DNA of 64,000 bases from Anaerolineae bacterium (GTDB lineage Bacteria; Chloroflexota; Anaerolineae; B4-G1): NCBI GenBank assembly GCA_041687115.1, contig JAWLCP010000002.1, forward strand, positions 2,102-66,101, read 5' to 3'. The translations under genes were made by a program, and so were the position numbers. The notes beneath the pieces are model-generated. The model had not been told where the DNA came from, made no database searches, and saw only the letters and a list, made by a program, of their open reading frames with translations. Within the stretch, counting starts at the first letter, position 1. Each line of letters starts with the position of its first letter. This document shows positions 33,536-50,982 of the stretch, piece after piece.

Positions 33536-34378
33536 CTAATCGGCGACGAAGAAGGCCACCGCCAGCACGCCGGGCCCGGCGTGCGTGACGATGGCGGGCG
33601 GCACGTCCAGGATTGGCACGGAAGGGAGGTCCAGGCTGGCGCGCAGGTCCTCTGCCAGGGCGCGTGCCTCGTCGGGGGCAGATGCGTGCATCACGGAGAG
33701 GTGACCGCTCCCATCCCCCGGGATCTGCTCCAGCACCAGCTCCTTCAGACGGGCGATAGCCCGCCCCTGCGTTCGGGTCCGTTCGAGCTGATCCGCGCGT
33801 CCGTCTCGCAGCGTGAGGATCGGCTTCACCCGCAGCACGCTCCCCAGCAGGGCGGCCGCGCCACCGATGCGCCCGCCTTTGGCCAGGTATTCGAGCGTTG
33901 CCACCAGGAAGTAGATACGACAGCGGGGGATCAGGTCCCGAACCCGTGCCTCAATCGTGTCGGCGTCCACGCCCTCCGCGCTCCACTCGGCCGCCAGCGT
34001 CACCAGCGTGGCCAGGGGGCTGCCGATCACCCGGGTGTCGATCACCCGGATGTCGGCATCAGGGAACTTGGCCGCTGCAACGGTGGCCGAGCGGACCGTC
34101 CCGCTCAGCTCGCTTGAGGGATGGATGCACATGATCGGGTCCCCCTCGGGCACCAGATGTTCGAACTCCTGAGCGAAGAGTTCCGGGGGTGGCGCCGAGG
34201 TCTTCGGCAGATCGTCCGATTGCTCCAACTGCTCCATGAATGTGGCGTGGTCGATCTCCTGTCCCTCGAGATAGGAATCAGATCCGAGAATGATCACCTG
34301 TGGAATGACGGGTATGTCGTATCGTCTTGCGACTTCATCCGGCAGGCCTGCCGTCGTGTCGGTGATGATCTTGACCAT
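33536..34378 (-). CDS. degV: DegV-family fatty-acid-binding protein (FakB-like)
   Basis: MVKIITDTTAGLP N-terminus; EDD-fold blocks. The track ORF extends to 34717; the likely start is M114, preceded by a strong GGAGGAGAGAG RBS. Confidence 0.85.
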   Translation of the reverse strand: MVKIITDTTAGLPDEVARRYDIPVIPQVIILGSDSYLEGQEIDHATFMEQLEQSDDLPKTSAPPPELFAQEFEHLVPEGDPIMCIHPSSELSGTVRSATVAAAKFPDADIRVIDTRVIGSPLATLVTLAAEWSAEGVDADTIEARVRDLIPRCRIYFLVATLEYLAKGGRIGGAAALLGSVLRVKPILTLRDGRADQLERTRTQGRAIARLKELVLEQIPGDGSGHLSVMHASAPDEARALAEDLRASLDLPSVPILDVPPAIVTHAGPGVLAVAFFVAD

Positions 34379-34861: not shown

Positions 34862-37800
34862 CTATCTCGAAACAAGCGGAAGAAAGACAGACGACATCTC
34901 ATCTTGCTCCGCGTCTTCGACTGTGAGGGTGAAGGACTGTGTGGCATGTGGGTCGACACCGTTGCTGGCTTCGAGCGTCAGGGGCCAGACACCATCCGTG
35001 CCAGCATCTGGCGTGCCAGACAGAATCGCTGTGGCGTCTCCGTTGTCGGTGAAGGTGACACCGGAAGGCAGCTCGCCGGTTCCTGAGATTGCTGGGGTCG
35101 GAATACCTGTTGCAGTGATGGTGAAGGTCCCTACTTCGCCAACAGTGAAGGTTGTGTTGTCGTCGCTGGTGATAGCTGGCGCTGTGACGAGTATCGTATT
35201 CAGGACCGCTTCAAGTACAGAACCAGAGCCGTTGAACTTACCAGTTCCACCATAGCCGCGCGCGCGGATCCATAGATTCTGTCCGTCGGGCAGTGACAAC
35301 CCAGTCAGGCGCCAGCCACCCTCTATGCGTGTCGCACCACCGAGCGGTGTGTAATGGATCCCATCCGTGGACAGCTCGAAGGTCACGCGCCAGACTTCCG
35401 GGCTTGCGCCGCCACGCAGCCAGGTGATCCCTTGGCCATTGGGATAGACGGACAGTGTTTGCCCGGCAGCGGTGTTGTTCGAGATTCGGGCGAAGTAGTT
35501 ATGTGGATGACCGTTCACCTCGGTGAAGCAGCCCCCCACCAGGATTCTGCCATCCGCTTCCATTGCCAGGGCCAAGACATAAGAGCCAGAACCGCTGGCA
35601 TCGAGGTCGAAGTCGATGTCGAGCTTTCCGTTGGACTCCAGCCGGCCGATGTTGTTGCTTGACCCGCCGCCTATTTCCGTGAACTGCCCCCCCACCAGGA
35701 TCTTCCCGTCCACTTGTACTGCCAGTGTGCTGACATAGTCGCCGACCACATCCGGGAGGAAATCCCCATCCAGGTCGCCGTCGGGGGACAGCCGGGCAAT
35801 TCCGATCTGTTTCGTTTCATTCACCTCCTTGAACGTCCCTCCCATCAGGATCCCACCGTCCGCCTGCACTGCCAAGGCCATGACAGAGACCCCCACCACG
35901 TCCGGTTTGAAGTACTCATCCACGCTGCCATCGGGGTGCAGTCGAGCGATACGTTCGCGTGTCCGTCCGTTCACTTCGCTGAAGCGGCCACCTATCAGGA
36001 TCTTGCCGTCCGCCTGTACAGCCAGGGTCCAAACAACGTCGTTCGCATCGGGATTGAAGCTGGCATCCAGGGTGCCGTCAGGGTCCAGTCGGGCGAGCCT
36101 CTGAATTGTCACCCCGTCCAACTCGGTGAATGGACCTGCAACTAGAATCTTGCCGTCCGGTTGCACTACCATAGCATTGATGTAAGCATCTGCCCCAGGG
36201 TCGAAGGCGGTGTCCAGATTGCCATCTGAGTCCAGCCGGGCGATGCGGTTACGTGCCTCCCCGCTCATCTGGTTGAATGCGCCCCCGACCAAGATCTTCC
36301 CGTCAGGTTGGACTGCCAGGGCGTCGACACGGCCGTTCGCACTCGGATTGAAGCTGGTGTCCAGGCTGCCGTCAGCGTTCAGCCGGGCGATGTGGTTTCG
36401 TTCCACTCCATTTACTTGCGTAAAATAGCCTCCTATCAGGATCCGACCGTCCGCCTGTACCGCCAACGCCGCGACAGTATCGTCCGGACCCGGTATTGTG
36501 GAGGGCGGTTCTCCCAGATACAGCCGGCCGTGTCCGTAGATATCATCCATCCCTGCCCCGCCCATGTCGACAGCGCGGTCCTCCAGGAAGCTCTGCAATT
36601 GGTCAGGGGGGTACGAAGGGTGAGCGCTCAAGACCAGTGCAGCGGCACCGGCCACGTGAGGCGTCGCTGACGATGTGCCGTTGAACTTCGATCCTTCTTC
36701 CGTACCATAGCTGACGGTATTCACGTTGGCAAAGGCGGCGATGTCGGGTTTGGTGAAACCACCCGATGCCGTACCACCAGATCCATTGGTTGGGCCTTCA
36801 GAGCTGTATACCTCTTGAGGGTACGGAGAACTCACATCCAGTGCTGCCACCGTCACTGCGGACGGCGCGTCTGCCAGGTTCTCCAGGCTGCGGGCGTGCA
36901 AGAGGTACTCGAGACGCGCAACCTTTGGTGCAAACACCTCAAGATTAACATCTCTGTCGCTATCGTACCGCACGATCTGGAATCCGTAGGCAGCTTCTTG
37001 GTCTGTGACGTAAGAAATCTGTTCAGTCGGCCACGGATAGCCACCGGATTGGTCGTTCTCACTCGCAGCTACCTGAACCCATGCAGCACCGTCCAATCGA
37101 AACAGATATAGATCGTAGTCCTGATCGACGTCCGTCCAATCATCCCAGCGCAGGTAGACATTGATCGGCCAGCCTGCTCTGATGAGGTACGCAGTCCATT
37201 CATCACCAGGGCCGAAGTAGTTGACGTTCTGGGTGAGTGAGAAGTAGTGAGTATTGTCGTCGTCCGCTGTATATGAGGGGTTGTTGAAAGGCCCACCCCA
37301 GTGGGCCTCGCGATCATTTCCAGCCGCCGTGAGCCACAGGATGCCGGCATCCCGCGCCTCCTGGACAAGATCTTCAAACTGCCCAGTCCCGTCACCGGGT
37401 GTCAGGTTGAACCAACCCATTGAGGTGGAGATGATATCCACTTGGTGTGTGTCCTTCAGCCAGGCCACAGCCTCTGCCAGATCCAGGTTGGTATTGACCT
37501 TGGCCAGGTACAGGCTTGCCTCGGGTGCGATGTCGTGGATTATTTCAGCACAAGCAGTACCGTGCTCCGTCGTACCATTGACCTGCGCATCGCTTTCACC
37601 ATCCACGAAGTTCTTGACATCCACCGATGGTGGAAGATCGCTGCTCAGCAGGCCTGCATAGCCCAGAAAACCACCATCGATGACGCCAATCTTCACACCA
37701 GCACCGCGATAACCGGCGCCATGCCAGGCTTCGCCGTTGATCACCGTCAGTCCTTCTGTCGTTTGACTTCCGGTACGTTCAACCTCCAAGAGGATGGCCT

Positions 37801-38344
37801 CCGCAGGGCGACGGATGAGATGAATATCATCGTGCGCGGCGACAACCTCGAGCTTATCGATGGGCAGCCATCCCTGGATCAAATTCCCGTCTCTGCTGGT
37901 CTTTGTTACCTCTCCGCCTGCCCCATGGACTGCCTCAATCGCCCCCTGCAAGCTGTCACCATCCGTCACAATCTGGACGTGCACCTGGTCACCTGACATT
38001 CTCAGCGACCGCGACTTGATGAGTGCCCCCTTCGCAGCGGCATCCCCAGCTCCTGCCAGGTCACCCAAGGTTGAATCAAGTTTGGGGTTCCTTGAATCGC
38101 GCGCGGGCTGATCGATGAAATCGCGGTGCCCGGTGAGCGCCTCTGGCGGCAGGGATATGGTCTGAAACGGCTGGTCTTGCTGGGGAATAGGCGCTCCCAT
38201 GCTTTGTGCGTTGCCGAACAGGAGCGTTAATGCCGCCAGGGCAATGAGTCCACGACCGACAATGCGATCTCTATGACCATGCAGGTTCGAGTCCATCTTG
38301 CTTTCCCCCTTCTGAATATAGTATCTGAGCTGTTCAGGCACCAC
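34862..38344 (-). CDS. Secreted subtilisin-like S8 serine peptidase: I9 propeptide + S8 catalytic domain + 7 delta-60 (beta-propeller) repeats + C-terminal putative Ig (He_PIG-like) domain
   Basis: Catalytic triad blocks VIDGG (Asp), HGTACAE (His), GTSSATPHVAG (Ser). Signal peptide after M17; the likely start is near 38296, with an AAGGGGGAAAG RBS. The seven repeats have the pattern ALAVQxDGKILVGGxFTxVNGxxRxxIARLxxDGSLD. Confidence 0.85.
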   Translation of the reverse strand: MVPEQLRYYIQKGESKMDSNLHGHRDRIVGRGLIALAALTLLFGNAQSMGAPIPQQDQPFQTISLPPEALTGHRDFIDQPARDSRNPKLDSTLGDLAGAGDAAAKGALIKSRSLRMSGDQVHVQIVTDGDSLQGAIEAVHGAGGEVTKTSRDGNLIQGWLPIDKLEVVAAHDDIHLIRRPAEAILLEVERTGSQTTEGLTVINGEAWHGAGYRGAGVKIGVIDGGFLGYAGLLSSDLPPSVDVKNFVDGESDAQVNGTTEHGTACAEIIHDIAPEASLYLAKVNTNLDLAEAVAWLKDTHQVDIISTSMGWFNLTPGDGTGQFEDLVQEARDAGILWLTAAGNDREAHWGGPFNNPSYTADDDNTHYFSLTQNVNYFGPGDEWTAYLIRAGWPINVYLRWDDWTDVDQDYDLYLFRLDGAAWVQVAASENDQSGGYPWPTEQISYVTDQEAAYGFQIVRYDSDRDVNLEVFAPKVARLEYLLHARSLENLADAPSAVTVAALDVSSPYPQEVYSSEGPTNGSGGTASGGFTKPDIAAFANVNTVSYGTEEGSKFNGTSSATPHVAGAAALVLSAHPSYPPDQLQSFLEDRAVDMGGAGMDDIYGHGRLYLGEPPSTIPGPDDTVAALAVQADGRILIGGYFTQVNGVERNHIARLNADGSLDTSFNPSANGRVDALAVQPDGKILVGGAFNQMSGEARNRIARLDSDGNLDTAFDPGADAYINAMVVQPDGKILVAGPFTELDGVTIQRLARLDPDGTLDASFNPDANDVVWTLAVQADGKILIGGRFSEVNGRTRERIARLHPDGSVDEYFKPDVVGVSVMALAVQADGGILMGGTFKEVNETKQIGIARLSPDGDLDGDFLPDVVGDYVSTLAVQVDGKILVGGQFTEIGGGSSNNIGRLESNGKLDIDFDLDASGSGSYVLALAMEADGRILVGGCFTEVNGHPHNYFARISNNTAAGQTLSVYPNGQGITWLRGGASPEVWRVTFELSTDGIHYTPLGGATRIEGGWRLTGLSLPDGQNLWIRARGYGGTGKFNGSGSVLEAVLNTILVTAPAITSDDNTTFTVGEVGTFTITATGIPTPAISGTGELPSGVTFTDNGDATAILSGTPDAGTDGVWPLTLEASNGVDPHATQSFTLTVEDAEQDEMSSVFLPLVSR
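35482..36487 (-). repeat. Tandem coding repeats of about 150 nt (7 copies) encoding the delta-60 repeat array within the S8 peptidase gene
   Basis: Protein-level periodicity over aa 620-955. This explains the cluster of spurious plus-strand ORFs at 35.3-36.7 kb. Confidence 0.7.
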
Positions 38345-38387: not shown

Positions 38388-38969
38388 CTACGGAAGCACA
38401 GCTTGAGCGGCCGGGCGGACTGCCAGTACCGCGTCCAGATTCGCGAGCTCGCAGAGCTGGTCAAAAGGTGCGAAGCCCTGTACTTGATTGCCAGACTGTG
38501 ACCCCAGCTCTACACCGTAATCCAGCAAGAAGCCTGTCTCTTCCCCCGCCAGGACAAACAAGACCTGTACCTTGTCGTCCTTCACCCTGAAGCCCAATTG
38601 CTCGGCCACCAGTGGCGGATCATCAGTCTGAGTCAGCTGATGAAGCTGGCTCTCCAGAGCTGGGCAGCAGTCATTTGGTTCGCGAGACGGTATCGTCTCC
38701 GGATCTCTGCTAAGGTCGCCTTCGACAATCTCGCGTTCACTCATTTGACCATCCCTACCCGGGTGAGGAGCGGACGTCCAGGTACACGCTCCCGTCAATG
38801 CTAAGGAAAAGGCTGCTGTCGCGCTGATCAACAGCAGCCTGACTCCTGATTGCGTCTGACGTGCCTCTGGGAAGCTTCCGTTGTTCTTGGGTGTCAGAAC
38901 TTCCTCCTCGCGTACGCCTCCGGCGTCATCCTGAGGTTCAACGAGAGGGACCACCATCCAGTATCTCAT
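38388..38969 (-). CDS. Hypothetical lipoprotein/secreted protein
   Basis: Hydrophobic signal-like segment ending ...SLALTGAC, then an acidic region with a CC pair. The real start is probably internal, near the LLL codons around 38.84 kb, which would remove the overlap with the next small ORF. Confidence 0.5.
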   Translation of the reverse strand: MRYWMVVPLVEPQDDAGGVREEEVLTPKNNGSFPEARQTQSGVRLLLISATAAFSLALTGACTWTSAPHPGRDGQMSEREIVEGDLSRDPETIPSREPNDCCPALESQLHQLTQTDDPPLVAEQLGFRVKDDKVQVLFVLAGEETGFLLDYGVELGSQSGNQVQGFAPFDQLCELANLDAVLAVRPAAQAVLP

Positions 38970-39189
38970 CCGGATGAGCCGTTTGAGCGTCGGTCCTAAG
39001 CGTCACTTCCTGCAAGAAGGCCTTCAGTGCCACCCAATCACGGAAGTAACGTGCTTCGCCGCTCGACACGTGCTGGACCTTGCCACGCAGTTCAGTCTGC
39101 CCGCCACCCAGGCCTTCTCGCCATAACCGCAGCGTGAACAGGTGTGAGCGGTGCGTGGGTTGCTCTGGATCCACGGTCAGTCCCATCAT
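38938..39189 (-). CDS. Small hypothetical protein (83 aa) with conserved-looking Trp/Arg-rich core
   Basis: ATG-ATG start 6 nt after a GGAGA RBS. Globular composition unlike the GC-shadow ORFs; motif LFTLRLWREG...LRGKVQHVSSGEARYFRDWVALKAFL. Confidence 0.45.
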   Translation of the reverse strand: MMGLTVDPEQPTHRSHLFTLRLWREGLGGGQTELRGKVQHVSSGEARYFRDWVALKAFLQEVTLRTDAQTAHPDEILDGGPSR

Positions 39190-39255: not shown

Positions 39256-39927
39256 TCACTCCTCTTCGGCCATTCTTGATTCGACCAGCCGGCCCAGCGA
39301 CAGAAGCCGGTCTGAACTCGGGGGCATCGCAGCTTTCGTTATGGTGACATACGCAACCGCATGTCCTTCTTGCCACAGGAGTTGACCGGCATTCATCTGC
39401 GTCAATTCGACCAGCCTGCTCTGTTGACCGATCCTGGGTGCCCCGGAATCGACCTCGCCCCCGATGTACGCGGCGATGGCATGGTATGCATCGCGAGCAG
39501 CCTCGACGTTGCCGAAGAGGACGACCCCGCTGGAAATCTGCTCCCAATAATAATACCCGCCACCTCGATAGTCGTAGACAACGACGTGCGCCTTGACCAC
39601 GTGCTCATGCGCCTCTGGCACATCCGGGTACACCTCTGCCCAATCCTTGACCGCACGAGTGTTGAACCTGTCGGGCACATCATCATCCTGCAGGGCAATC
39701 CTCGATGGATCCTGCTTCTCCAGCTGGGGACCAGCAGGAGTCCGCGTGGGGTCCGCTGGGGTTGCTTCCCTGATGGCAGTTGGGCCCTCTGTCCCGGTTG
39801 GATCAGGAGCAACCGTCTCCTCTACTGTACTGGTGGGTGGGGCCGCTGTTCGGGTGACCGTCGCGAAGGGTGATGACGGCCCGCAGGCGGCAAGGAGAAT
39901 GACAGTCGCGGGAGCCAGGACGGCCAT
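39256..39927 (-). CDS. Hypothetical lipoprotein
   Basis: The likely start is M40 (MAVLAPATVILLAACGPSS, lipobox LLAAC). Pro/Thr-rich linker, then a globular domain (YDYRGGGYYYWEQ). Confidence 0.65.
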   Translation of the reverse strand: MAVLAPATVILLAACGPSSPFATVTRTAAPPTSTVEETVAPDPTGTEGPTAIREATPADPTRTPAGPQLEKQDPSRIALQDDDVPDRFNTRAVKDWAEVYPDVPEAHEHVVKAHVVVYDYRGGGYYYWEQISSGVVLFGNVEAARDAYHAIAAYIGGEVDSGAPRIGQQSRLVELTQMNAGQLLWQEGHAVAYVTITKAAMPPSSDRLLSLGRLVESRMAEEE

Positions 39928-40220
39928 TCTCCAGTCAGCTGGTCCCCTCGGCTGGCCTCCATGCTCCTTCGACGTTGCGCCCGGATCCAGCCTTCGAGCC
40001 AAAGCCCTGAGCGTCCCTTCCGTGCCTAAGGGAGCCCCTGCCATCTTTGGACCGTGGGCTGCGTGACTGACGGGTCGGCTCTGTGTGTCACCTGGCCTTG
40101 AACAAGGCCTGCGGGTGGAGAGATGGAGGCCAGGATAAGCATCGGTTTGACAGAGGCCAGCTGCGCTGAGGATGGATTCTGAGCCATAGTCAGCCCCAGT
40201 TCGAGTTCTATTCTCTCCGT

Positions 40221-41819
40221 TTACGGAAGCCCCCCCACCACCTGGAACGTGTCGACGATCCGCACGAATGCGTCCATATCGGCATCGCTGACAAGCTGGG
40301 CAAGAACGAAGACGAGGAAAGACCCGTCCTCAGGCTCTGCCGCAATGTTGACGATGGTGCTCAGCCCGCCGCCGCAGTCGGTGTACAGGTCGTAGTATCC
40401 GACGTAGTACCCATCGTCGTAGTCGTATCGCCCATCGTACAGGCAGCCGCCGGCAAAGTTGAAGGCGTCGAGGAGGCTGTACAGGTCGTATTCCGCGATA
40501 ATCACCCTGGATGCACCGAAGAAGAGCCCGGGCGTATCCCAGGTGTCGTTGAAGCCCACCAGGTCGGTAGAGGCAGACACGGCTGCTCCGATCTCTCTGC
40601 CCTCCATCATCCAGGCGCCGCCGTCGATATCGTTCCATTCCCGGGGAACCTCCACCTGCAGGAGTCCGTAGTCGTCGGCAATGAGGACATAACCCGCATA
40701 GCCCGGAGAGGTAGGCTCACCCTCGGCCACAGCCGGGGTCGGGACCACGGGGAGAGATACCACCTCGAGTTCGCGCCCGTTGAGCTGCCCCTCGAGCCTC
40801 TCGCCGGTCTCAAAGCGGAACACGTCGACACTGAGGACGTCGCCGGGGTCGTGGCTGCGCAAGATGTCGCAGTAGTCCGACATGGTACCATCCGTGGCCA
40901 GGATCAGGCCCTCGACGCGGTAGATGATGTCCCCGCCGCGAATACCGGCCTGGTCGGCCGGCGAGCCCGACTCGACCGATGAGACCCAGATGCCGGAGAG
41001 CCCCTCGCCGTCGTTCACGGCCACGCCGTTGACCCCGATCGACGTCACATCCTGGCCAGCACGCAGCTGGTCGATCACCTTGAGGGCCTCGTCGCGGGCA
41101 ATGGCGAAGCACTGGTCGGACAGGTCCGCGCTGCGGCGGGCCCTGTAGTGGATGCCCACCACATTTCCATCTTCTGTCACAAGCGCCCCCCCCGAGTTGC
41201 CCGGGTTGGCGCCTGCATCGTGTTGGATGACCGTGTCGACTGAAGCCCAGTTTGTCTCACCGTCAGCCCGCTCCTTGGCGACGATGCCACGAACCAGGGT
41301 GTACTCGGGGTCGCCCAGCGGGAAGCCAGCCACATAGATGTCGAGACCGGCCGAGACTGGGCCGTCGTACCATTCGAGATAGGGGAATCCGTCGCCGTCG
41401 ATATCGATGATCGCCAGATCGGAGCACTCGGACACGGCCACGACTTTGGCATTGCGGGGCTCGCTCTCGCCACCCACCCAGACTTTGAGCAGCGCCGCCC
41501 CGGTGACGACGTGGTTGTTGGTCACGGCGATCCCTGATTCGTCGATGATGAAGCCAGAACCACGACCGGCCACGTTCATCTGGGTGCCAACGCCGGGCTC
41601 GACGAAACTGCCCTGCGCTTCGATCTGGACGACTGCGCTCTTGACGTCTTCGAGCGTCGTCACCGCTGCGGATGGCGTCTCGGTGGGGGGTGGGGCTTGA
41701 GTCGCTGGTGGGGGCTCAGTGGGCTCCGGAGCCTCAGTGGGCGCTGCGTCTCCGCCACATCCCGCAAGGGCCAGGACCAACACCCAGATCCACATAGACT
41801 TAGAACGGCTGGCACTCAT
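40221..41819 (-). CDS. Trypsin-like S1C (HtrA/DegP-type) serine protease lipoprotein with a PDZ domain and an unusual Tyr/Asp-rich C-terminal domain
   Basis: Lipobox LALAGCGG. Catalytic His (TNNHVV), Asp (DLAIIDI), Ser (GNSGGALV). PDZ region (GIWVSSVESGSPADQAGIRGGDII). The C-terminal 150 aa (YDGRYDYDDGYYVGYYDLYTDCGGG) matches no family I recognise. Confidence 0.8.
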   Translation of the reverse strand: MSASRSKSMWIWVLVLALAGCGGDAAPTEAPEPTEPPPATQAPPPTETPSAAVTTLEDVKSAVVQIEAQGSFVEPGVGTQMNVAGRGSGFIIDESGIAVTNNHVVTGAALLKVWVGGESEPRNAKVVAVSECSDLAIIDIDGDGFPYLEWYDGPVSAGLDIYVAGFPLGDPEYTLVRGIVAKERADGETNWASVDTVIQHDAGANPGNSGGALVTEDGNVVGIHYRARRSADLSDQCFAIARDEALKVIDQLRAGQDVTSIGVNGVAVNDGEGLSGIWVSSVESGSPADQAGIRGGDIIYRVEGLILATDGTMSDYCDILRSHDPGDVLSVDVFRFETGERLEGQLNGRELEVVSLPVVPTPAVAEGEPTSPGYAGYVLIADDYGLLQVEVPREWNDIDGGAWMMEGREIGAAVSASTDLVGFNDTWDTPGLFFGASRVIIAEYDLYSLLDAFNFAGGCLYDGRYDYDDGYYVGYYDLYTDCGGGLSTIVNIAAEPEDGSFLVFVLAQLVSDADMDAFVRIVDTFQVVGGLP

Positions 41820-42037: not shown

Positions 42038-45000
42038 CTACAGGTAGCCCATCTCGCGGGCCAATTCCAGGGCGCGATTCATGTGCGAACGTGCCACCGC
42101 CGCGTCACCGGCGACTCTCCCCTGAATCGCTGCCTCCAGAGCGCCGCTCAGTTCATCGGGCAGGCGTTGTTGTGGAGGGTCGAGCAGCGCCTGCGCATGC
42201 GCCCATGCCTCGTGCTCCCGGCCTCGCGCCAGCGCCACGGCGATCAGGGGCCACAGGGCCTGCCATTGAAAGGGGTACACGAGGGGCGTCTGTTCCCAGA
42301 GCGCAATCGCTTCCTGGCCGAGTTGCTCCGCTGCGGAGAGGTCCCCTCTGCGCCAGGCGTGCCACGCCTGGTTACCCCTGGCCGCAGCCACATAGTCGGG
42401 CATCTCGGCTGCCTCCGCGCCCTCCTGGGCACGGGCTGCGTAATCCAAGACCGCATCCAGCTGATCCCGGAAGCGGTACAGCACGGTCAGATAAGTTAGA
42501 CTGAGGACTTGCATCGGCACAATTCCGGAGCTTTCGGCCAGCTCGAGGGCGGCTTGCAGGTGCTCCTCAGCCTCATTGAGTTCGTGCCGCCACAGGTGGA
42601 GAAATCCGAGCTCGAACTCACTTTCAACCCGAATTCTCGGGCTGTCCATCCCCTGGCTCAAAGCGAGCGATTCACGCGAGTTTGCCAGCATCCCGTCCGA
42701 TACTGCATACCGTTCCCTCCGCAAGCGCATCATGCAGGAGACCATCAGCAAGCGCTGGCGGCTGGCAGCGCTTTCGCGGGCCTGCACGACCGGCTCTACC
42801 TTCTTCACCAACTCGTCCATCTCTGGCAGCTGGCACAACCAGTAGTGCACCCAAACCTGCTGAATTTGCACTTCAATCCATTCTTCCCACCAGCGGCTGC
42901 TCTCCTCGTCTGGTTGCCTGCCCAGCGTGGCCTCGGCTCGACGGCACGCATCCAACGCCTCCACATAGCGCCTCTGCTCGCAGAGGACCGCTCCCGACTT
43001 GCGATTGAGCCGGGCCCGTCTCATTCGATCGATGCAGCGAACGTCGGCCCCGGCGTCTTGGTACGCCTGCAGAGCTTCAGCGTGGCGTGCCGTGAGTTCG
43101 AGAACGTCACCCAGCCTCTCCCAGAGATCTGCTGCAAGCTCACAGGCGAGCTCCCCCCCTCCTGTCCTTGCCCTATCTTCTTCGAGAAGCATCAGACCAC
43201 GCTGCAGCAGCCCGATGGCGTCCTCGTTGGCATAGACCTGCCGTGCCACCTCGGCCGCGCGTAAGTAGTAGGGCACTGCTCGTCCTGGCAGACCGGCACG
43301 TTCATAGTGGGTCGCCACCTGGTAGCTGACAGGGCCCGTGTCTCGGGCATGGAGCGTCTCCAGGGCCCGGGCCACGCGTTCATGCAGCAGTCGTCGTCGC
43401 CCTGAGCTCAAGCAGTTGTAGGCCACCTCCCGGAGCTTGTCATGGCTGAAGTCGTAGGCGTCGGTGCCGCGCTCTCGCACGATGCCCCGCTTCCACAGCT
43501 CGTCGATCTCGTGGATCAGTGTATCTTCATCACAATCGCTGGCCTGGGCGAGTAACTGGAAACTGAACTCCCGGCCGATCGTGGCCGCGAGCTCCGCCCG
43601 TTCCCGCGCAGAAGACGAGACCTGAGCCAGGCGCGCTTCAAGCACCAGCTGCACCTTGCGAGGGAGAGCTAGATCACCGGACAGATAGTCGTGCGGCGAT
43701 CCTTGCGCCGCAGCGGCATCCAGCCTTGGGCCGCCCGTGGGCAGTCCAGCCCGCAGGGTCTCAACCACGAACAGGGGGTTGCCCTCCGTCTCCCGGTAGA
43801 GGAACTGAGCTGTCTCCATGTCCAGCTCTCTGCCGGCCACGCCCTCCGCCAGCGCCTGCGTGGCGCCCTCGCTGAGTGGGCGCAGGTGGAACTCCGTCAC
43901 CTGTTCGTCACGACGAAGTGCTTGGAGCAGGGACATCAGCGCATGGCTGTCCCCAACCTCCTCCGGTCGGTAGGTGCCGATGACCAGCAGCCGGGCAGCA
44001 GGGTCGAATCGCAGCAGGAAATGGAGCCAGTGCAGGGTGTCCCGATCGCACCACTGGAGGTCGTCGATCGTCAGCAGGAGGGGCTGATTTCCGCCCAAGA
44101 CGGAGCGCGACAGTGCTTCAAAGAGGCGCTGTCGCTGCCAGGCCTCGGTTAGTGGGCCCAGCCGAGGCAGGTCCGGTCGATCGCCCAACACCTCTGGCAG
44201 CAGCCGCGCTACCTCCGCGAGCCAGACATCCTCCAGAGGTGGCAGCGGATGGGCCCGCAGCCAGGCGGTAACCGGTGCGTAGGCCAGCTCGCCCTCAGCC
44301 GCATAGCAGCAGGCATTGGCGGTAGTGATCCCCTGGCGATCCGCCCACTGAAGCAGCTCCTCAGCGAGTCTGGTCTTGCCGATTCCCGCTTCTCCACGCA
44401 CCAGCACAAGATGGGATCCCCCATCTGCCGCAACCAGTCGCCAGGCCCATTGCAGCTGCCTCCATTCCTCGTCTCGCTCCACCAGCGGAGATCTGCCAGG
44501 CGAGGCGAGTATTGGTGGAGGCCAGGCCTCCATGTCGAGCAAGCGCTCGTACGCTTCCTGAGTCGGGCGACTGGGCTCCACACCCAGCTCGCGCTCCAGG
44601 ACGGTAGCGCATTCGTGATAGACCCGCAGTGCACCGGCGCGGTTACCGTTGAGGTCGTGGAGGCGGATGAGACGTCGATACGTCGCCTCGTGCAAGGGAT
44701 CGTCCCGCAACAAGCGCCGGGCGTAGACAATGGCCGCCTGGAAGTCGCGCTGTTCTTCCATCATCCAAACCAGTCGTTCCAGAGCGGCCAGATAGCGCTG
44801 ACGCAGTTCTTCACGGTGGGGGATGATCCAGTCGTCGTAGCAGCTGGGTAGCAAGTCACCCCTGTACAGGGCTATTGCCCGCTCCAACGCCTCTTGAGCT
44901 GGGGCCGAATCGCTCGCTCTGCGCGCCTTCTCTGCCTGCGCGAGCGCGGCATAGAAGTCGGCCACGTCCAGGGTGAACGCGGCGCCCGGCCGCCACTGCA

Positions 45001-45322
45001 GCGTCAATACGTCCGCGTGGAGGAGAGCATCTGCATCCGGTAAGGCACGGCGCAGGTGATAGAGCACGTGGCGCAGGTTAGCTCGGGCCTGGGCTTCGCT
45101 CGATTCAGGCCAGAAGAGAAAGGCCAGATGGGCGCGCGATTGGGAGGCCTCGCTGTGCAGCAGCAGATAGGCCAGCAGTGATTGGAGGCGCGGTGTATCG
45201 ACGCCGGGGACGGGCGTTTCGTCGTCTGTAATGCGAAAACCGCCCAATAGCGAAACGCTCAGCATTGAGGTGGAGTCCCATCGTTCCCGGCCCTTGGTCG
45301 TTACGGAGCCAGGAGGCGACAC
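42038..45322 (-). CDS. SARP/AfsR-family STAND regulator: OmpR-type winged-helix DNA-binding domain + BTAD + NB-ARC/AAA ATPase + TPR array (1094 aa)
   Basis: LLGGFRITDDETPV...RLQSLLAYLLLH (SARP DNA-binding), BTAD block (YRRLIRLHDLNGNRAGALRVYHEC), Walker A GEAGIGKTRL, long TPR/helical C-terminal half. The likely start is M20 at 45265. Confidence 0.85.
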   Translation of the reverse strand: MSPPGSVTTKGRERWDSTSMLSVSLLGGFRITDDETPVPGVDTPRLQSLLAYLLLHSEASQSRAHLAFLFWPESSEAQARANLRHVLYHLRRALPDADALLHADVLTLQWRPGAAFTLDVADFYAALAQAEKARRASDSAPAQEALERAIALYRGDLLPSCYDDWIIPHREELRQRYLAALERLVWMMEEQRDFQAAIVYARRLLRDDPLHEATYRRLIRLHDLNGNRAGALRVYHECATVLERELGVEPSRPTQEAYERLLDMEAWPPPILASPGRSPLVERDEEWRQLQWAWRLVAADGGSHLVLVRGEAGIGKTRLAEELLQWADRQGITTANACCYAAEGELAYAPVTAWLRAHPLPPLEDVWLAEVARLLPEVLGDRPDLPRLGPLTEAWQRQRLFEALSRSVLGGNQPLLLTIDDLQWCDRDTLHWLHFLLRFDPAARLLVIGTYRPEEVGDSHALMSLLQALRRDEQVTEFHLRPLSEGATQALAEGVAGRELDMETAQFLYRETEGNPLFVVETLRAGLPTGGPRLDAAAAQGSPHDYLSGDLALPRKVQLVLEARLAQVSSSARERAELAATIGREFSFQLLAQASDCDEDTLIHEIDELWKRGIVRERGTDAYDFSHDKLREVAYNCLSSGRRRLLHERVARALETLHARDTGPVSYQVATHYERAGLPGRAVPYYLRAAEVARQVYANEDAIGLLQRGLMLLEEDRARTGGGELACELAADLWERLGDVLELTARHAEALQAYQDAGADVRCIDRMRRARLNRKSGAVLCEQRRYVEALDACRRAEATLGRQPDEESSRWWEEWIEVQIQQVWVHYWLCQLPEMDELVKKVEPVVQARESAASRQRLLMVSCMMRLRRERYAVSDGMLANSRESLALSQGMDSPRIRVESEFELGFLHLWRHELNEAEEHLQAALELAESSGIVPMQVLSLTYLTVLYRFRDQLDAVLDYAARAQEGAEAAEMPDYVAAARGNQAWHAWRRGDLSAAEQLGQEAIALWEQTPLVYPFQWQALWPLIAVALARGREHEAWAHAQALLDPPQQRLPDELSGALEAAIQGRVAGDAAVARSHMNRALELAREMGYL

Positions 45323-48150: not shown

Positions 48151-50982
48151 ATGTCGATGGATAGCAGCCGCCGCCGTGGCTGGACGTTCGCCGTTGGCCT
48201 CCTGGTTGTCTGTCTTGCAGCAGCCGCGCTGCGCTTCTACCGCCTGTCCGACCTGCCCGTGGGTATGCACTATGATGAGGCAGCCAACGGCATCCTGGCT
48301 GGAGAGATTGCCAGGGGTGTCAGGAGACCGATCTTCATCCCGGCCTACACCGGCAAGGAGGTTCTGTTCTTCTACTGGGCGGCTCTGTGGATGAAGGTTC
48401 TGGGCATCACGCCCTTCGCGCTCCGGCTCGCGGCAGCTTCAATCGGCACAGCAACCGTCGCGGCGACCGTCTGGACGGTCTACGAGCTCCTCTACGAGCG
48501 CGATGAGGGACTGTGGATCGCGCTCGGTGCTGCGGCGTTCCTTGCGGTCTCCTTCTGGCACCTCGTCCTCAGTCGTTATGGATTTCGGGCCGTCACGCAG
48601 CCCCTGCTCCAGGCGCTCACGGTTGCTGCCCTGTGGCGCGGGCTGCGAACCGCGGAGAGGGGCTGGTTGGTGGCGGCGGGTCTCTTCTGCGGCCTGACCG
48701 CCTACACCTATCTGGCCGCCCGCGCCTTTCCCGTCCCGCTCACCGTAGCGCTCGCGGTTCTCCTCGTCGCCGATCGAGACCAGAGACGGGAGCGTCTCCT
48801 GCAGCTGGCGATCTTCGCCGCCGCTGCTGCGCTTGTGCTGGCGCCTCTGGCTCACTATTGGCTGACCCATCCGGGCACCTTCATGGTCCGCGCCAGGCAG
48901 GTTGCTGCCGACACCTGGGGGGAGGCCTGGAGGGGCTTCCTGGCCTGCCTCCAGATGTTCTTCCTCCGCGGTGATCCCTACGTGCGCTTCAACCTGCCTC
49001 ATCGCCCGCTCTTCCTGCCTGGTGCCGCGGCTTTCCTCGTGGTCGGCGTTGGGCTGGCGGCGTGGCGGTTCGTGCATCTGTGGCAGGCTCGGGTACGTCG
49101 GTCTTCTTCTCTCCCCCTGGCGTCGTACGCCTTTCTTCTCGCCTCGATGCCCGTGATGCTCGTGCCCAGCGCGCTGGCCACTGGGGAGATCACGCCAAGC
49201 AACCTCCGCACCGTCGGTCTCCTTCCGTTCGTGGTCGTGTTTCCGGCGCTGGGGTTGTTTGCTCTGAAGTCGTGGCTGTGGCGCGCGGTCCAGCGAGGCA
49301 GCAGGGAGCAGGGGGGTCCGGCAACCAGACGGGCGCTCCAGCTCCTGCTCGTCGGTCTGGTGCTCGCGGTGGGCACGCCTGCAACCGCTGCCGCCTACTT
49401 CCGAGACTGGGCGTCGTCCCCGGCGTTGTACGAGGCGGCTGACGGTGACCTGGCTCACGTGGCCGACTACCTCAGTCGGGCGGATCTCGCGTCGATGGAG
49501 CCGTACGTCGCCAGCCAACACTATCGCCACCCCACGTTGGCTTTCCTCGCCCACGACTACGACGCGGTGCGCTGGCTCGTCGGAGGACAGACTCTCGTAT
49601 TCCCCGCCGATGGGGATGCGCTCCTCATCCTTCCACGCTCGGCGGCAGCCGATCTGGACTGGGTGGACTCGATGTTGCCCGGTGATGCTCTGGTCGGCTC
49701 CCCGTCGGGCCCTGATCGATCTCCCGACTTCCACGCCTATCGGGTGAGTGGCGAGCACGATCCGACGCCGGCACGATCGCAGGCCGCGAATTTCGGCGAC
49801 GTGGTCCACTTGCTGGGCTACACCGTTCTTGTCCAATCTCGCTCCGGCGACTGCGTGGAGCTGACGCTGTGGTGGAAGGTGGTCGACCTCCCGGATCGCC
49901 ATGACTATCGCCCCATCCTGCGTTTCGTTGATCGGGAGGGCTTCCTGTGGGGGGAGAGCCAGCCCTTTCACTACCCTTCTGAGCAGTGGCTGCCCGGGCA
50001 GGTGGTCGTGGATCACATCTCGATCCCTGTCGCCGCTGGTGCACCACCGGGCGACTACCTTGTACGTCTTGGGTTCTACTCGCCGGGTGCCGACGCTCGA
50101 ATGCCTCTACTCGACGACGGCGGGGCGTACGCAGGGGCGTACGTCGAGCTCCCGGTCTCTCTGGCCCGTGCGAAGGAGCCTCCTCCTGTCGGTGCCCTCG
50201 ACATCCACAATCCCTTGGGCGTCGACGTGGACGGCCTGACGCTGCTCGGGGCCACGGTAGAGGCGACGACGATCCGGCCCGGAGAGCGGCTCCGGCTGAC
50301 ACTCTTCTGGCGCGCGGATGCCGGGGAACTGCCGTCGAACCCGGTCTCTCTCTGGTTAGGTGATACGAAGCTCTACGACGGCGACCCCGTGCGCGGGACC
50401 TATCCCTTCGGCGTCTGGTCAGTGGGAGAGGTCGTCGGCGATCGCTACGCCCCCCGCATACCCCTCGACACCCGCCCCGGCGAGCACCGTCTCCAGGTTC
50501 GGATGGCTGACACCACCGTAGACCTGGGTCGTGTTACCGTTCAGGAGACGGACCGGTCGTTCGAGGTGCCGTCGCTGTCGCATCTGATCGGCGTCTCGCT
50601 CGGGAATCGCGTCGAGTTGCTGGGATATGACCTCTCGGCCGGTTCGGTCGCGCCCGGGGAGACGCTCGTCCTCACCCTCTACTGGCGCGCGCTGACCGAG
50701 ATGAGCAGGGAGTACACGGTCTTCACGCATCTGCTCGCGCCCGATGGCTCGATGACCGGGCAGCAGGACAACCAACCGGTCAGGGGCAGCTATCCCACCA
50801 CTCTGTGGCTGCCAGGTGAGGTCGTTGCCGATGCCTACGAGATCTCTGTCCGCCCCGACGCTGCCGGGGGCGAGCATCGGTTGGAGGTTGGGATGTACGA
50901 GCCGGAGACCGGAACCCGCCTTCCCGTTGCCGGGCGCGCGGATAATGCGGTCCCCCTGCAGGTCGTCCGCGTCGTAGAGTGA
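48151..50982 (+). CDS. GT-C fold glycosyltransferase (PMT_2/ArnT-like, family 39/83 type) with a large extracytoplasmic C-terminal domain containing three internal repeats
   Basis: Multi-TM N-terminal half with GMHYDEAANG (DE motif of GT-C enzymes). C-terminal repeats each ending in TLxWRA (ELTLWWKVV, LRLTLFWRA, LVLTLYWRAL). Confidence 0.8.
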   Translation: MSMDSSRRRGWTFAVGLLVVCLAAAALRFYRLSDLPVGMHYDEAANGILAGEIARGVRRPIFIPAYTGKEVLFFYWAALWMKVLGITPFALRLAAASIGTATVAATVWTVYELLYERDEGLWIALGAAAFLAVSFWHLVLSRYGFRAVTQPLLQALTVAALWRGLRTAERGWLVAAGLFCGLTAYTYLAARAFPVPLTVALAVLLVADRDQRRERLLQLAIFAAAAALVLAPLAHYWLTHPGTFMVRARQVAADTWGEAWRGFLACLQMFFLRGDPYVRFNLPHRPLFLPGAAAFLVVGVGLAAWRFVHLWQARVRRSSSLPLASYAFLLASMPVMLVPSALATGEITPSNLRTVGLLPFVVVFPALGLFALKSWLWRAVQRGSREQGGPATRRALQLLLVGLVLAVGTPATAAAYFRDWASSPALYEAADGDLAHVADYLSRADLASMEPYVASQHYRHPTLAFLAHDYDAVRWLVGGQTLVFPADGDALLILPRSAAADLDWVDSMLPGDALVGSPSGPDRSPDFHAYRVSGEHDPTPARSQAANFGDVVHLLGYTVLVQSRSGDCVELTLWWKVVDLPDRHDYRPILRFVDREGFLWGESQPFHYPSEQWLPGQVVVDHISIPVAAGAPPGDYLVRLGFYSPGADARMPLLDDGGAYAGAYVELPVSLARAKEPPPVGALDIHNPLGVDVDGLTLLGATVEATTIRPGERLRLTLFWRADAGELPSNPVSLWLGDTKLYDGDPVRGTYPFGVWSVGEVVGDRYAPRIPLDTRPGEHRLQVRMADTTVDLGRVTVQETDRSFEVPSLSHLIGVSLGNRVELLGYDLSAGSVAPGETLVLTLYWRALTEMSREYTVFTHLLAPDGSMTGQQDNQPVRGSYPTTLWLPGEVVADAYEISVRPDAAGGEHRLEVGMYEPETGTRLPVAGRADNAVPLQVVRVVE

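Follow-up and report, generated by a model that had tools for sequence, protein, structure and literature searches.

A single gene on the minus strand of a 64,000-nt stretch of Anaerolineae bacterium DNA (contig JAWLCP010000002.1; the whole stretch is hereafter the window) raises two questions, namely what kind of protein joins a subtilase of family S8 to a delta-60 repeat beta-propeller and an immunoglobulin (Ig)-like domain, and whether the repeats render that gene changeable. As judged from sequence comparisons and structural models, its product is likely an exported, catalytically competent, modular subtilase of this uncultivated bacterium. Below, the first ~600 residues are termed the head and the remainder the tail. 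The gene as most likely translated is:

34862..38296, minus strand: subtilase gene, 1144 amino acids (aa) plus the stop codon

The uninterrupted open reading frame (ORF) in its longest form occupies 34862..38344 on the minus strand and opens with a GTG at 38344, which an earlier note on this DNA had taken as the gene start. That start was not borne out. An ATG at 38296 is preceded by AAGGGGGAAAG, a strong Shine-Dalgarno-like sequence, and the 1144-aa product that begins there is the same as in the NCBI and Logan gene calls; on these two grounds we favored the ATG as the likely translation start, with the GTG probably being wrong, and residues are numbered from it throughout. The exact protein was already deposited at NCBI as "MAG: S8 family serine peptidase [Anaerolineae bacterium]". 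Moreover, the 3435-nt gene was present with the same flanks in four separately deposited NCBI metagenome-assembled genomes (MAGs) and in one Logan assembly of a public run. It was identical in four of these further assemblies and differed by one single-nucleotide polymorphism (SNP) in the fifth, and the five, which are near-clonal populations, matched the window at 99.9-100% identity over 5-23 kb.

We found the following features in the head:

38201..38296, minus strand: predicted Sec-type signal peptide, aa 1-32, MDSNLHGHRDRIVGRGLIALAALTLLFGNAQS (read from sequence)
37781..38179, minus strand: prodomain (AlphaFold2 (AF2) secondary structure, Foldseek, family profile)
37277..37756, minus strand: S8 catalytic domain part 1, aa 181-340 (Pfam PF00082, alignment with subtilisin BPN', family conservation)
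37676-37678, minus strand: catalytic D207, aligned to BPN' D32
37562-37564, minus strand: catalytic H245, aligned to BPN' H64
37316-37318, minus strand: oxyanion N327, aligned to BPN' N155
36857..37276, minus strand: beta-sandwich insertion of ~140 aa inside the S8 domain, aa 341-480 (split Pfam and PDB matches, model)
36497..36856, minus strand: S8 catalytic domain part 2, aa 481-600 (Pfam PF00082, BPN' alignment, family conservation)
36671-36673, minus strand: catalytic S542 in GTSSATPHVAG, aligned to BPN' S221

The hidden Markov model (HMM) PF00082 (Peptidase_S8) matched in two stretches at 93.3 bits, well above its cut-off of 21.8, and PDB subtilisins were matched at E 1e-15 with the single sequence and at 4e-25 with the family profile. 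In an alignment of 51 family members D207 was invariant and H245, N327, and S542 were each at least 90% conserved, so that the S8 domain with Asp, His, and Ser all in place, which the earlier note had read from the letters, is upheld both by the Pfam score and by the correspondence with the BPN' triad. The insertion sits between the oxyanion Asn and the catalytic Ser, is all-beta with high predicted local distance difference test (pLDDT) values in a head model of mean pLDDT 84, and is kept across the family, with W384 and W387 invariant in the same alignment; its sequence alone found no match in Pfam models or the PDB. At the N-terminus, a basic n-region, an 11-residue hydrophobic core, and an AQS c-region, all read from the sequence, point to a Sec-type signal peptide, which forms a lone N-terminal helix in the model and whose hydrophobic character is kept in the family consensus.

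Between the signal peptide and the catalytic domain, the AF2 model contained the elements E104-110, H113-125, E129-133, E139-145, H146-153, and E160-162, followed by a low-confidence linker at aa 174-180. Foldseek matched unprocessed pro-subtilisin E (3whi) at a template modelling (TM) score of 0.72 normalised to the target, and further matches were to Pro-Tk-subtilisin, Tk-SP, and CspB/CspC/CspA. Additionally, the family profile alignment extended from the propeptide residues of pro-subtilisin E (3whi) across its catalytic domain. Pfam Inhibitor_I9 found no match in the whole protein at E<=0.1 or in the isolated N-terminal region at E<=10, and the isolated prodomain sequence had none in the PDB or Pfam. 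The prodomain as modeled is thus I9-like at the fold and profile level only, and the "I9 propeptide" of the earlier note stands in that sense but not as a Pfam assignment. The domain order given there also stood as far as it went; it overlooked the S8 insertion and a ~92-aa beta-sandwich in the tail.

The tail consists of:

35483..36490, minus strand: seven-bladed delta-60 beta-propeller (DUF5122 / TIGR02608), aa 603-938, seven repeats of 48-52 aa
35192..35467, minus strand: conserved beta-sandwich without a family model, ~92 aa, aa 944-1035, directly after the propeller (AF2 pLDDT ~95)
34916..35176, minus strand: He_PIG Ig-like domain, aa 1041-1127 (Pfam PF05345)
34865..34915, minus strand: disordered C-terminal tail, aa 1128-1144 (pLDDT 35; last ~15 residues)
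34865-34885, minus strand: FLPLVSR motif, the last seven residues, abutting the stop codon

The seven 48-52-aa repeats that had been noticed earlier were confirmed, with PF17164 (DUF5122) matching in seven stretches at 276.8 bits (cut-off 27) and NCBIfam TIGR02608 (delta_60_rpt), the family proposed for checking, at 207.3 bits (cut-off 76.5). The tail model had a mean pLDDT of 90, with the propeller at 96-98 (AF2), and in it the seven blades close into a confident ring. The beta-sandwich that follows had no Pfam match even at E<=10 and none in the PDB by sequence; it recurred in 67 of the top 120 delta-60 proteins and is visible in the consensus of the delta-60 alignment, and we consider it a candidate new domain family. 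The putative Ig domain was matched by He_PIG, albeit marginally (24.9 bits against a cut-off of 24), with a beta-sandwich model of pLDDT 70-84, and He_PIG-like domains occurred in five of 120 tail relatives. An accessory binding role for the propeller, as suggested earlier, is a reasonable reading by analogy, given that hundreds of relatives have the same head but other C-terminal modules. A virginiamycin-lyase-like enzyme was considered for the propeller and rejected, as the score was below cut-off.

In answer to the second question, the DNA of the repeats was compared directly. A seed-and-extend search recovered seven copies with a period of 147-156 nt and 60-75% identity between 35511 and 36477. 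The ~1 kb of tandem 150-nt DNA repeats described earlier therefore exists as a periodicity; it does not hold as a DNA array, because Tandem Repeats Finder reported no ~150-nt array at default settings or at a minimum score of 30, the codon-aligned nucleotide identity between copies averaged 59% with a maximum of 67%, and the longest exact word common to two copies was 14 nt. At the amino-acid level the copies averaged 47% identity, and blades were 28-61% identical to each other versus up to 69% to blades of other proteins. Since the copies have diverged, and blades are no closer within the protein than between proteins, the pattern reflects a strongly conserved repeat consensus rather than recent duplication. 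We conclude that the repeats do not form an unstable DNA array but are seven old and much diverged blades of a ring of fixed size, and in the model it is the closed seven-blade ring that would constrain copy number. The stack of plus-strand ORFs, which had been attributed to the repeats, has another source: ORFs of at least 80 aa lie along the whole gene (34.85-38.1 kb), and because they are spread over its entire length they reflect GC-rich antisense frames.

Two rival accounts of the repeats and of the fusion were weighed against these results. Were this a contingency-type locus, the 150-nt repeats would recombine or slip, and the blade number, and with it the binding module, would vary between strains. 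The seven copies do have a periodicity detectable in DNA, blade number does vary over evolutionary time (~4-14 motif matches per delta-60 protein), giant delta-60 proteins with many propellers exist, and a relative, P0002, has just three repeats. Against this stand the low identity of the copies and their short shared words, the negative Tandem Repeats Finder result, the blades being no more alike within the protein than between proteins, and the modeled closed ring; moreover, the gene has 0-1 SNP and no length variation in the five assemblies, although these are near-clonal, so that blade variation between strains is only weakly tested by them. Recombination-prone repeats and a varying blade number, as the earlier note had envisaged, are thus unsupported, and we regard a contingency locus as highly improbable. 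A joining of separate S8 and delta-60 genes during assembly, or a compressed or expanded array, would fit the rarity of the combination (two of 120 head homologues and none of 120 tail homologues), and repeat-containing genes in metagenome assemblies are a recognised source of assembly errors. The repeats, however, are too diverged at 59% identity to confuse an assembler, and the ORF runs without a break, through a plausible linker (EPPSTIPGPDD), from the head to a propeller whose seven blades close into a confident ring. Because the five assemblies carry the same 3435-nt gene and flanks with 0-1 differences, an artefact of the array, which the earlier note had allowed for, is ruled out, and a chimera is scarcely credible.

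We next consider the family to which the head belongs. Searches matched 461 proteins at E<=1e-10, and homologues of the whole protein shared only its first ~600 residues, at 50-67% identity and ~50% query coverage. Their C-terminal modules differed and included DUF11, TIG, fn3, Big_9, PPC, sortilin/BNR-type, and DNRLRE-type domains, and many head homologues were without any annotated tail domain. A metagenome scan with the head alignment gave at least 562 relatives among 600 candidate stretches, while a contig scan with the single head sequence gave three loci, from an Anaerolineae MAG, Thermoanaerobaculales, and Wenzhouxiangella. The ~600-aa head is therefore the conserved unit of a large Chloroflexota family with interchangeable tails. 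The MAG GCA_046497135.1, which carries the window, has two more head genes with different tails on another contig. There (L094; contig JAWOGD010000129.1, 5816-14991), two further cassettes are arranged in tandem, in which a degenerate 137-aa gene, resembling the partner gene described below, precedes an 817-aa S8, and a 165-aa partner with a canonical lipobox (LMGGC) precedes a 1470-aa S8.

The combination of this head with delta-60 repeats was found in one other of the 120 head homologues, P0002, a complete gene (L089, 6001-10335) whose product comprises the head, a PT linker, the C-terminal motif discussed below, a second PT linker, another domain, and three C-terminal delta-60 repeats, too few for a closed propeller alone. 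The S8 plus delta-60 fusion is therefore rare and, as this architecture differs from that of the window protein, probably arose more than once. None of the best 150 matches of a full-protein representative search had the S8 head or the motif, with giant multi-propeller proteins dominating, so that search does not measure the rarity of the fusion. Over 99% of its length, the tail aligned at 53% identity with P0125, a secreted stand-alone delta-60 protein encoded in a tandem array of three delta-60 genes (L093, 743-8820; 976, 736, and 939 aa). The simplest history suggested by these comparisons would be the joining of a propeller/beta-sandwich/Ig cassette of the P0125 kind to a family head. For an enzyme type that is itself well known, the fusion is a new combination, and the protein had already been deposited. 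Our searches of the literature found nothing on the "delta-60 repeat", and DUF5122 only in a structure-prediction survey; an anammox-granule paper on extracellular peptidases was set aside, since it deals with Chlorobi rather than Anaerolineae.

Directly upstream of the protease lies a second gene, which the earlier note had not considered:

38388..38969, minus strand: partner gene, 193 aa as the longest ORF, lipoprotein-type signal plus stand-alone prodomain paralogue
38784-38786, minus strand: partner lipobox Cys, aa 62 (alignment of 19 partners)
38391-38666, minus strand: prodomain-paralogue part of the partner, aa 102-193 (BLASTP, hhalign)

The partner gene stops 91 nt upstream of the protease ATG. 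Its C-terminal 70 residues were 31% identical to the protease's own prodomain (BLASTP, E 1e-6), and a profile of 19 partners aligned with the prodomain of the head family over 119 columns at 99.1% probability and E 1.6e-18 (hhalign). Of 70 loci whose sequence extended far enough upstream, ~20 had a homologue immediately before the head gene and in the same orientation; homologues also preceded P0002 and P0013, the latter in the MAG GCA_046497135.1. All 19 aligned partners had a hydrophobic segment that runs up to an invariant Cys with lipobox-like surroundings, and all end a few residues past the segment aligned with the prodomain end. Two further Cys were both present in 15 partners and both absent in four, a pattern that, from sequence, makes a disulfide possible. 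The partner matched no Pfam or NCBIfam model, while two partner proteins weakly matched Pfam CspB_prodomain. Partners are publicly annotated as hypothetical proteins, and the NCBI call for the window copy is 118 aa and without the signal peptide. Together, these features suggest that the partner is tethered to the membrane and probably inhibits the mature enzyme or docks with it. A hairpin with a 12-bp stem and a T-rich run was also observed at 38810-38840 on the minus strand, inside the signal-peptide coding region of the partner; it is probably due to chance, because terminator counts in this region were no higher than in shuffles.

The C-terminus of the protease, ...SSVFLPLVSR, had been quoted correctly in the earlier note but not recognised as a recurrent motif. 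FLPLVSR is an instance of the strict pattern [YF]LPL[VI]x[KR] and was its sole match in all six frames of the window; the broader consensus is a hydrophobic residue followed by [YF]-L-P-L-[VI]-x-[RK] and then by zero to three residues, often Asn (none in 19 cases, one in 15, two in five, and three in four). Among the 120 head homologues, 36 ended in a loose form of the motif, and 63 had the strict form after the head, 28 of them within nine residues of the end and 35 internally. Internal copies were always in exposed, Pro-rich or Pro/Thr-rich linkers at module boundaries, and the first 560 aa of all 120 contained three strict matches. Of the delta-60 proteins without a protease, nine of 120 ended in the motif and one had it 23 residues before the end, with none elsewhere in the 103,494 residues of these proteins.

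The motif also extended to unrelated genes. The related loci, 804 kb in all, contained 574 non-overlapping ORFs, of which 17 ended in it, versus 0.27 expected; among these were eight of the 499 non-S8 ORFs (P ~2e-10), and six of the eight had signal-like N-termini as compared with 25% of other ORFs (Fisher P 0.005). All three delta-60 genes of L093 encode signal peptides, and their products end in FLPLVMR, YLPLLLK, and FLPLILR. The product of the gene after P0002 (L089), 482 aa long, is unrelated, has a signal peptide, and ends in AYLPLVVRVE, and a 156-aa TIG-domain gene at 3627-4097 of L094 ends in HIYLPLILK, while the nearby 817- and 1470-aa S8s do not end in the motif. Relatives outside Chloroflexota were without it, and Bacteroidota delta-60 proteins carry a type IX secretion system (T9SS) domain at that place. 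We conclude that this linear motif is specific to the lineage and nearly restricted to the C-termini and module boundaries of Chloroflexota secreted proteins. The literature searched contained no published description of it, its strings retrieving frog temporins and unrelated peptides only, and no NCBIfam sorting-signal model matched. A sortase-type signal was rejected, as no transmembrane helix follows the motif, and so was a T9SS sorting domain, as PF18962 (Por_Secre_tail), present in ~25 Bacteroidota-type tail homologues, was not matched in the window protein. A retention or maturation signal is our favored guess, and a docking peptide is also a live option.

The product has the full set of sequence features of an exported, active subtilase whose multi-domain tail is non-catalytic. 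It would leave the cell by Sec export, fold with the assistance of its prodomain, and then process itself, after which the propeller/Ig tail would target the enzyme to a polymeric substrate or a surface. The upstream lipoprotein, ending where the prodomain would be cleaved, would most likely act on the mature enzyme from the membrane, either as a tethered, product-like inhibitor or as a docking partner. The terminal [YF]LPL[VI]x[KR] would mark the ends and module boundaries of secreted proteins, with its role in retention or maturation a guess.

Other functions for the same parts were weighed together. The head could be a non-catalytic receptor or pseudoprotease of the CspC/CspA type, with the subtilase fold as a scaffold or sensor, for CspC and CspA were among its best structural matches and retention of the prodomain can leave Csp-type enzymes inactive (PMC3567191). 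The window protein, however, has Asp, His, oxyanion Asn, and Ser in canonical motifs that are at least 90% conserved in 51 relatives, it has a secretion signal, its lineage context is non-sporulating, and the NCBIfam CspBA model reached only 21.3 bits in a local match against a cut-off of 1250; we give this account a very small chance. We rate only slightly higher, and still as very unlikely, a bifunctional enzyme in which the propeller is itself catalytic, as a lyase or hydrolase like other seven-bladed propeller enzymes. A dedicated maturation protease is less implausible, though still distinctly unlikely. In such a scheme the heads would cleave or transpeptidate [YF]LPL[VI]x[KR] on secreted proteins, including themselves, client selection would fall to the tail, and the partner would keep the enzyme at the membrane. 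This would account for the motif lying exactly at the head/tail boundary or the end in 63 of 120 head proteins, for its internal copies in exposed linkers, for the lipoprotein nature of the partner, and for the motif at the ends of unrelated signal-peptide proteins near head genes (L009, L021 with two genes, L049, L089, and L094). On the other hand, gene adjacency is uninformative here, as the presence of a head gene was the criterion by which the loci were picked. In L093, moreover, three motif proteins are encoded and a head gene is absent within 9 kb, many heads are without the motif, and a protease with a general nutritional role would be a simpler explanation of the large paralogous family. 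In its wider form, the proposal is that the motif is an undescribed sorting, retention, or maturation signal without a transmembrane helix, read or cleaved by partner-tethered Csp-like heads, and that the window gene is a client-selecting member of a lineage-specific secretome-processing system; we consider this speculative and rather unlikely, if the least remote of the alternatives.

Several points weigh against the reading that we prefer, that of an exported, active subtilase with a tethered partner and a terminal signal. That the protein is secreted, processes itself, and is active is predicted computationally, and so is the ligand of its propeller. Because the partner is present in only ~30% of related loci and some paralogues of the protease in the same MAG have a degenerate copy, it is not essential to the family; in addition, its start codon is uncertain, with the 118-aa NCBI call excluding the signal peptide. 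Promoter and terminator predictions across 34.5-40.3 kb were no more numerous than in shuffled sequence and are thus uninformative on co-transcription of partner and protease. As to the motif, its pattern was defined from the subtilase family before being tested on neighboring genes, ORF calling and the signal-peptide test were crude in the motif statistics, L093 was included on account of a motif-bearing gene, and many head proteins are without it, including P0013 and P0024 in the same genome. Finally, the likeness of the insertion to the Csp jelly-roll derives from whole-chain Foldseek rank and spacing, and TM scores of 0.45-0.55 (E 5e-18 to 1e-16 over ~600 aligned columns with CspA, CspC, and CspB) are no proof of homology.

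The genes farther upstream of the partner were also inspected. An 83-aa ORF at 38938-39189 on the minus strand had no Pfam match and was called in all five related assemblies. Upstream of it, on the same strand, are a 262-aa ORF at 39256-40044, also without a Pfam match and lipoprotein-like (...LLAACGPSS), where the five assemblies call a shorter 140-aa gene; an HtrA-like trypsin-PDZ serine protease with a lipoprotein-like N-terminus at 40221-41819; and a large BTAD-AAA_16-TPR regulator at 42038-45322. The plus strand encodes a 943-aa polytopic membrane protein at 48151-50982, with weak GT-C-type matches (PMT_2, GtrII) below cut-off. It coincides with a strongly negative AT skew at 46-54 kb, which probably reflects the hydrophobic codon content of that protein. 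On the other side of the protease gene, a 15-nt unit, CGATCACCCGGATGT, is repeated 2.1 times at 34024-34055, within the long 5′ extension of a DegV ORF and upstream of the DegV start called in public assemblies.

Taken by itself, the gene encodes one more modular secreted subtilase, and it shows how a conserved Anaerolineae head is combined with interchangeable binding tails. Its wider interest lies in three associations. The Csp-type layout, described as clostridial-only, appears to be standard in a very large family of secreted Chloroflexota subtilases, and its occurrence outside clostridia would put the Csp proteins in a broader evolutionary context. A lipoprotein-anchored, stand-alone bacterial prodomain would be a simple case of self-protection or surface tethering in trans. 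Lastly, a seven-residue motif at the ends and in the linkers of one phylum's secreted proteins resembles signatures that earlier led to new sorting systems, in a phylum whose envelope biology is poorly understood. If the motif-processing proposal were true, the window gene would be part of a system that processes the secretome, and not just a nutritional protease.

Among known systems, the clostridial Csp germination proteases (CspB, CspA, and CspC; PDB 4i0w, 9pr8/9pr9, and 6mw4) were the top Foldseek matches of the head. Common to them and the window protein are a prodomain and a subtilase domain split between His and Ser by a beta insertion of ~130-140 aa. In CspB, with the triad D126/H183/S494, the retained prodomain and the central ~130-aa jelly-roll insertion are described as distinctive Csp features, and the central jelly-roll has been called unique to Csps (PMC3567191). 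The Csp prodomain remains bound once autoprocessing is complete, and the proteases function in activating a spore cortex hydrolase (PMC3567191). The layout of the head is Csp-like because its His-to-Ser spacing is 297 aa, as compared with 311 in CspB and 157 in BPN'. By sequence the window protein is not a member of the Csp family, given the CspBA score above and an insertion without sequence relatives in the PDB or Pfam, and unlike Csps it has a secretion signal, a 540-aa propeller/Ig tail, and an Anaerolineae source. The classical pro-subtilisins (subtilisin E/BPN', Tk-subtilisin, and Tk-SP) share the catalytic fold and residues of the head, whereas the head prodomain is longer, with an extra N-terminal segment and without a Pfam Inhibitor_I9 match, and the window protein further differs in its long C-terminal extension and in the large insertion that its catalytic domain contains. 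The stand-alone delta-60 proteins (P0125 and its L093 neighbors) have the same repeats, beta-sandwich, and terminal motif, and sometimes He_PIG; unlike the window protein, they are without a protease domain and usually have at least two propellers (10-14 blades).

The terminal motif invites comparison with the sortase and exosortase signals (LPXTG and PEP-CTERM) and with the T9SS C-terminal domain, which are likewise family-independent signatures at the extreme C-terminus within one lineage, and it occupies the position that the T9SS domain has in Bacteroidota homologues. Unlike LPXTG and PEP-CTERM, it is followed by only zero to three residues, with no transmembrane helix or basic tail, and in contrast to the ~80-aa T9SS domain it is ~7 residues long and also occurs internally, in the linkers of multi-module subtilases. 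For the partner, the closest parallels are the stand-alone propeptide-like subtilase inhibitors of MEROPS family I9, of which five examples are listed, all eukaryotic: Pleurotus POIA1, yeast PBI2, Arabidopsis SPI-1, Toxoplasma MIC5, and Plasmodium SUB1-ProM (PMC6993865). Like these, the partner is a small, separate gene product that resembles a subtilase prodomain. SUB1-ProM is encoded next to subtilase genes and inhibits the mature enzyme (PMC6993865); similarly, the partner gene immediately precedes its subtilase gene, and its product stops at the equivalent of the prodomain C-terminus. The listed inhibitors are eukaryotic and soluble, whereas the partner is bacterial, has a lipoprotein signal with an invariant Cys, and would be an inhibitor by analogy. 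It is also demonstrably homologous to the prodomain of its neighbor, as opposed to the possible convergent mimicry in the listed I9 inhibitors.

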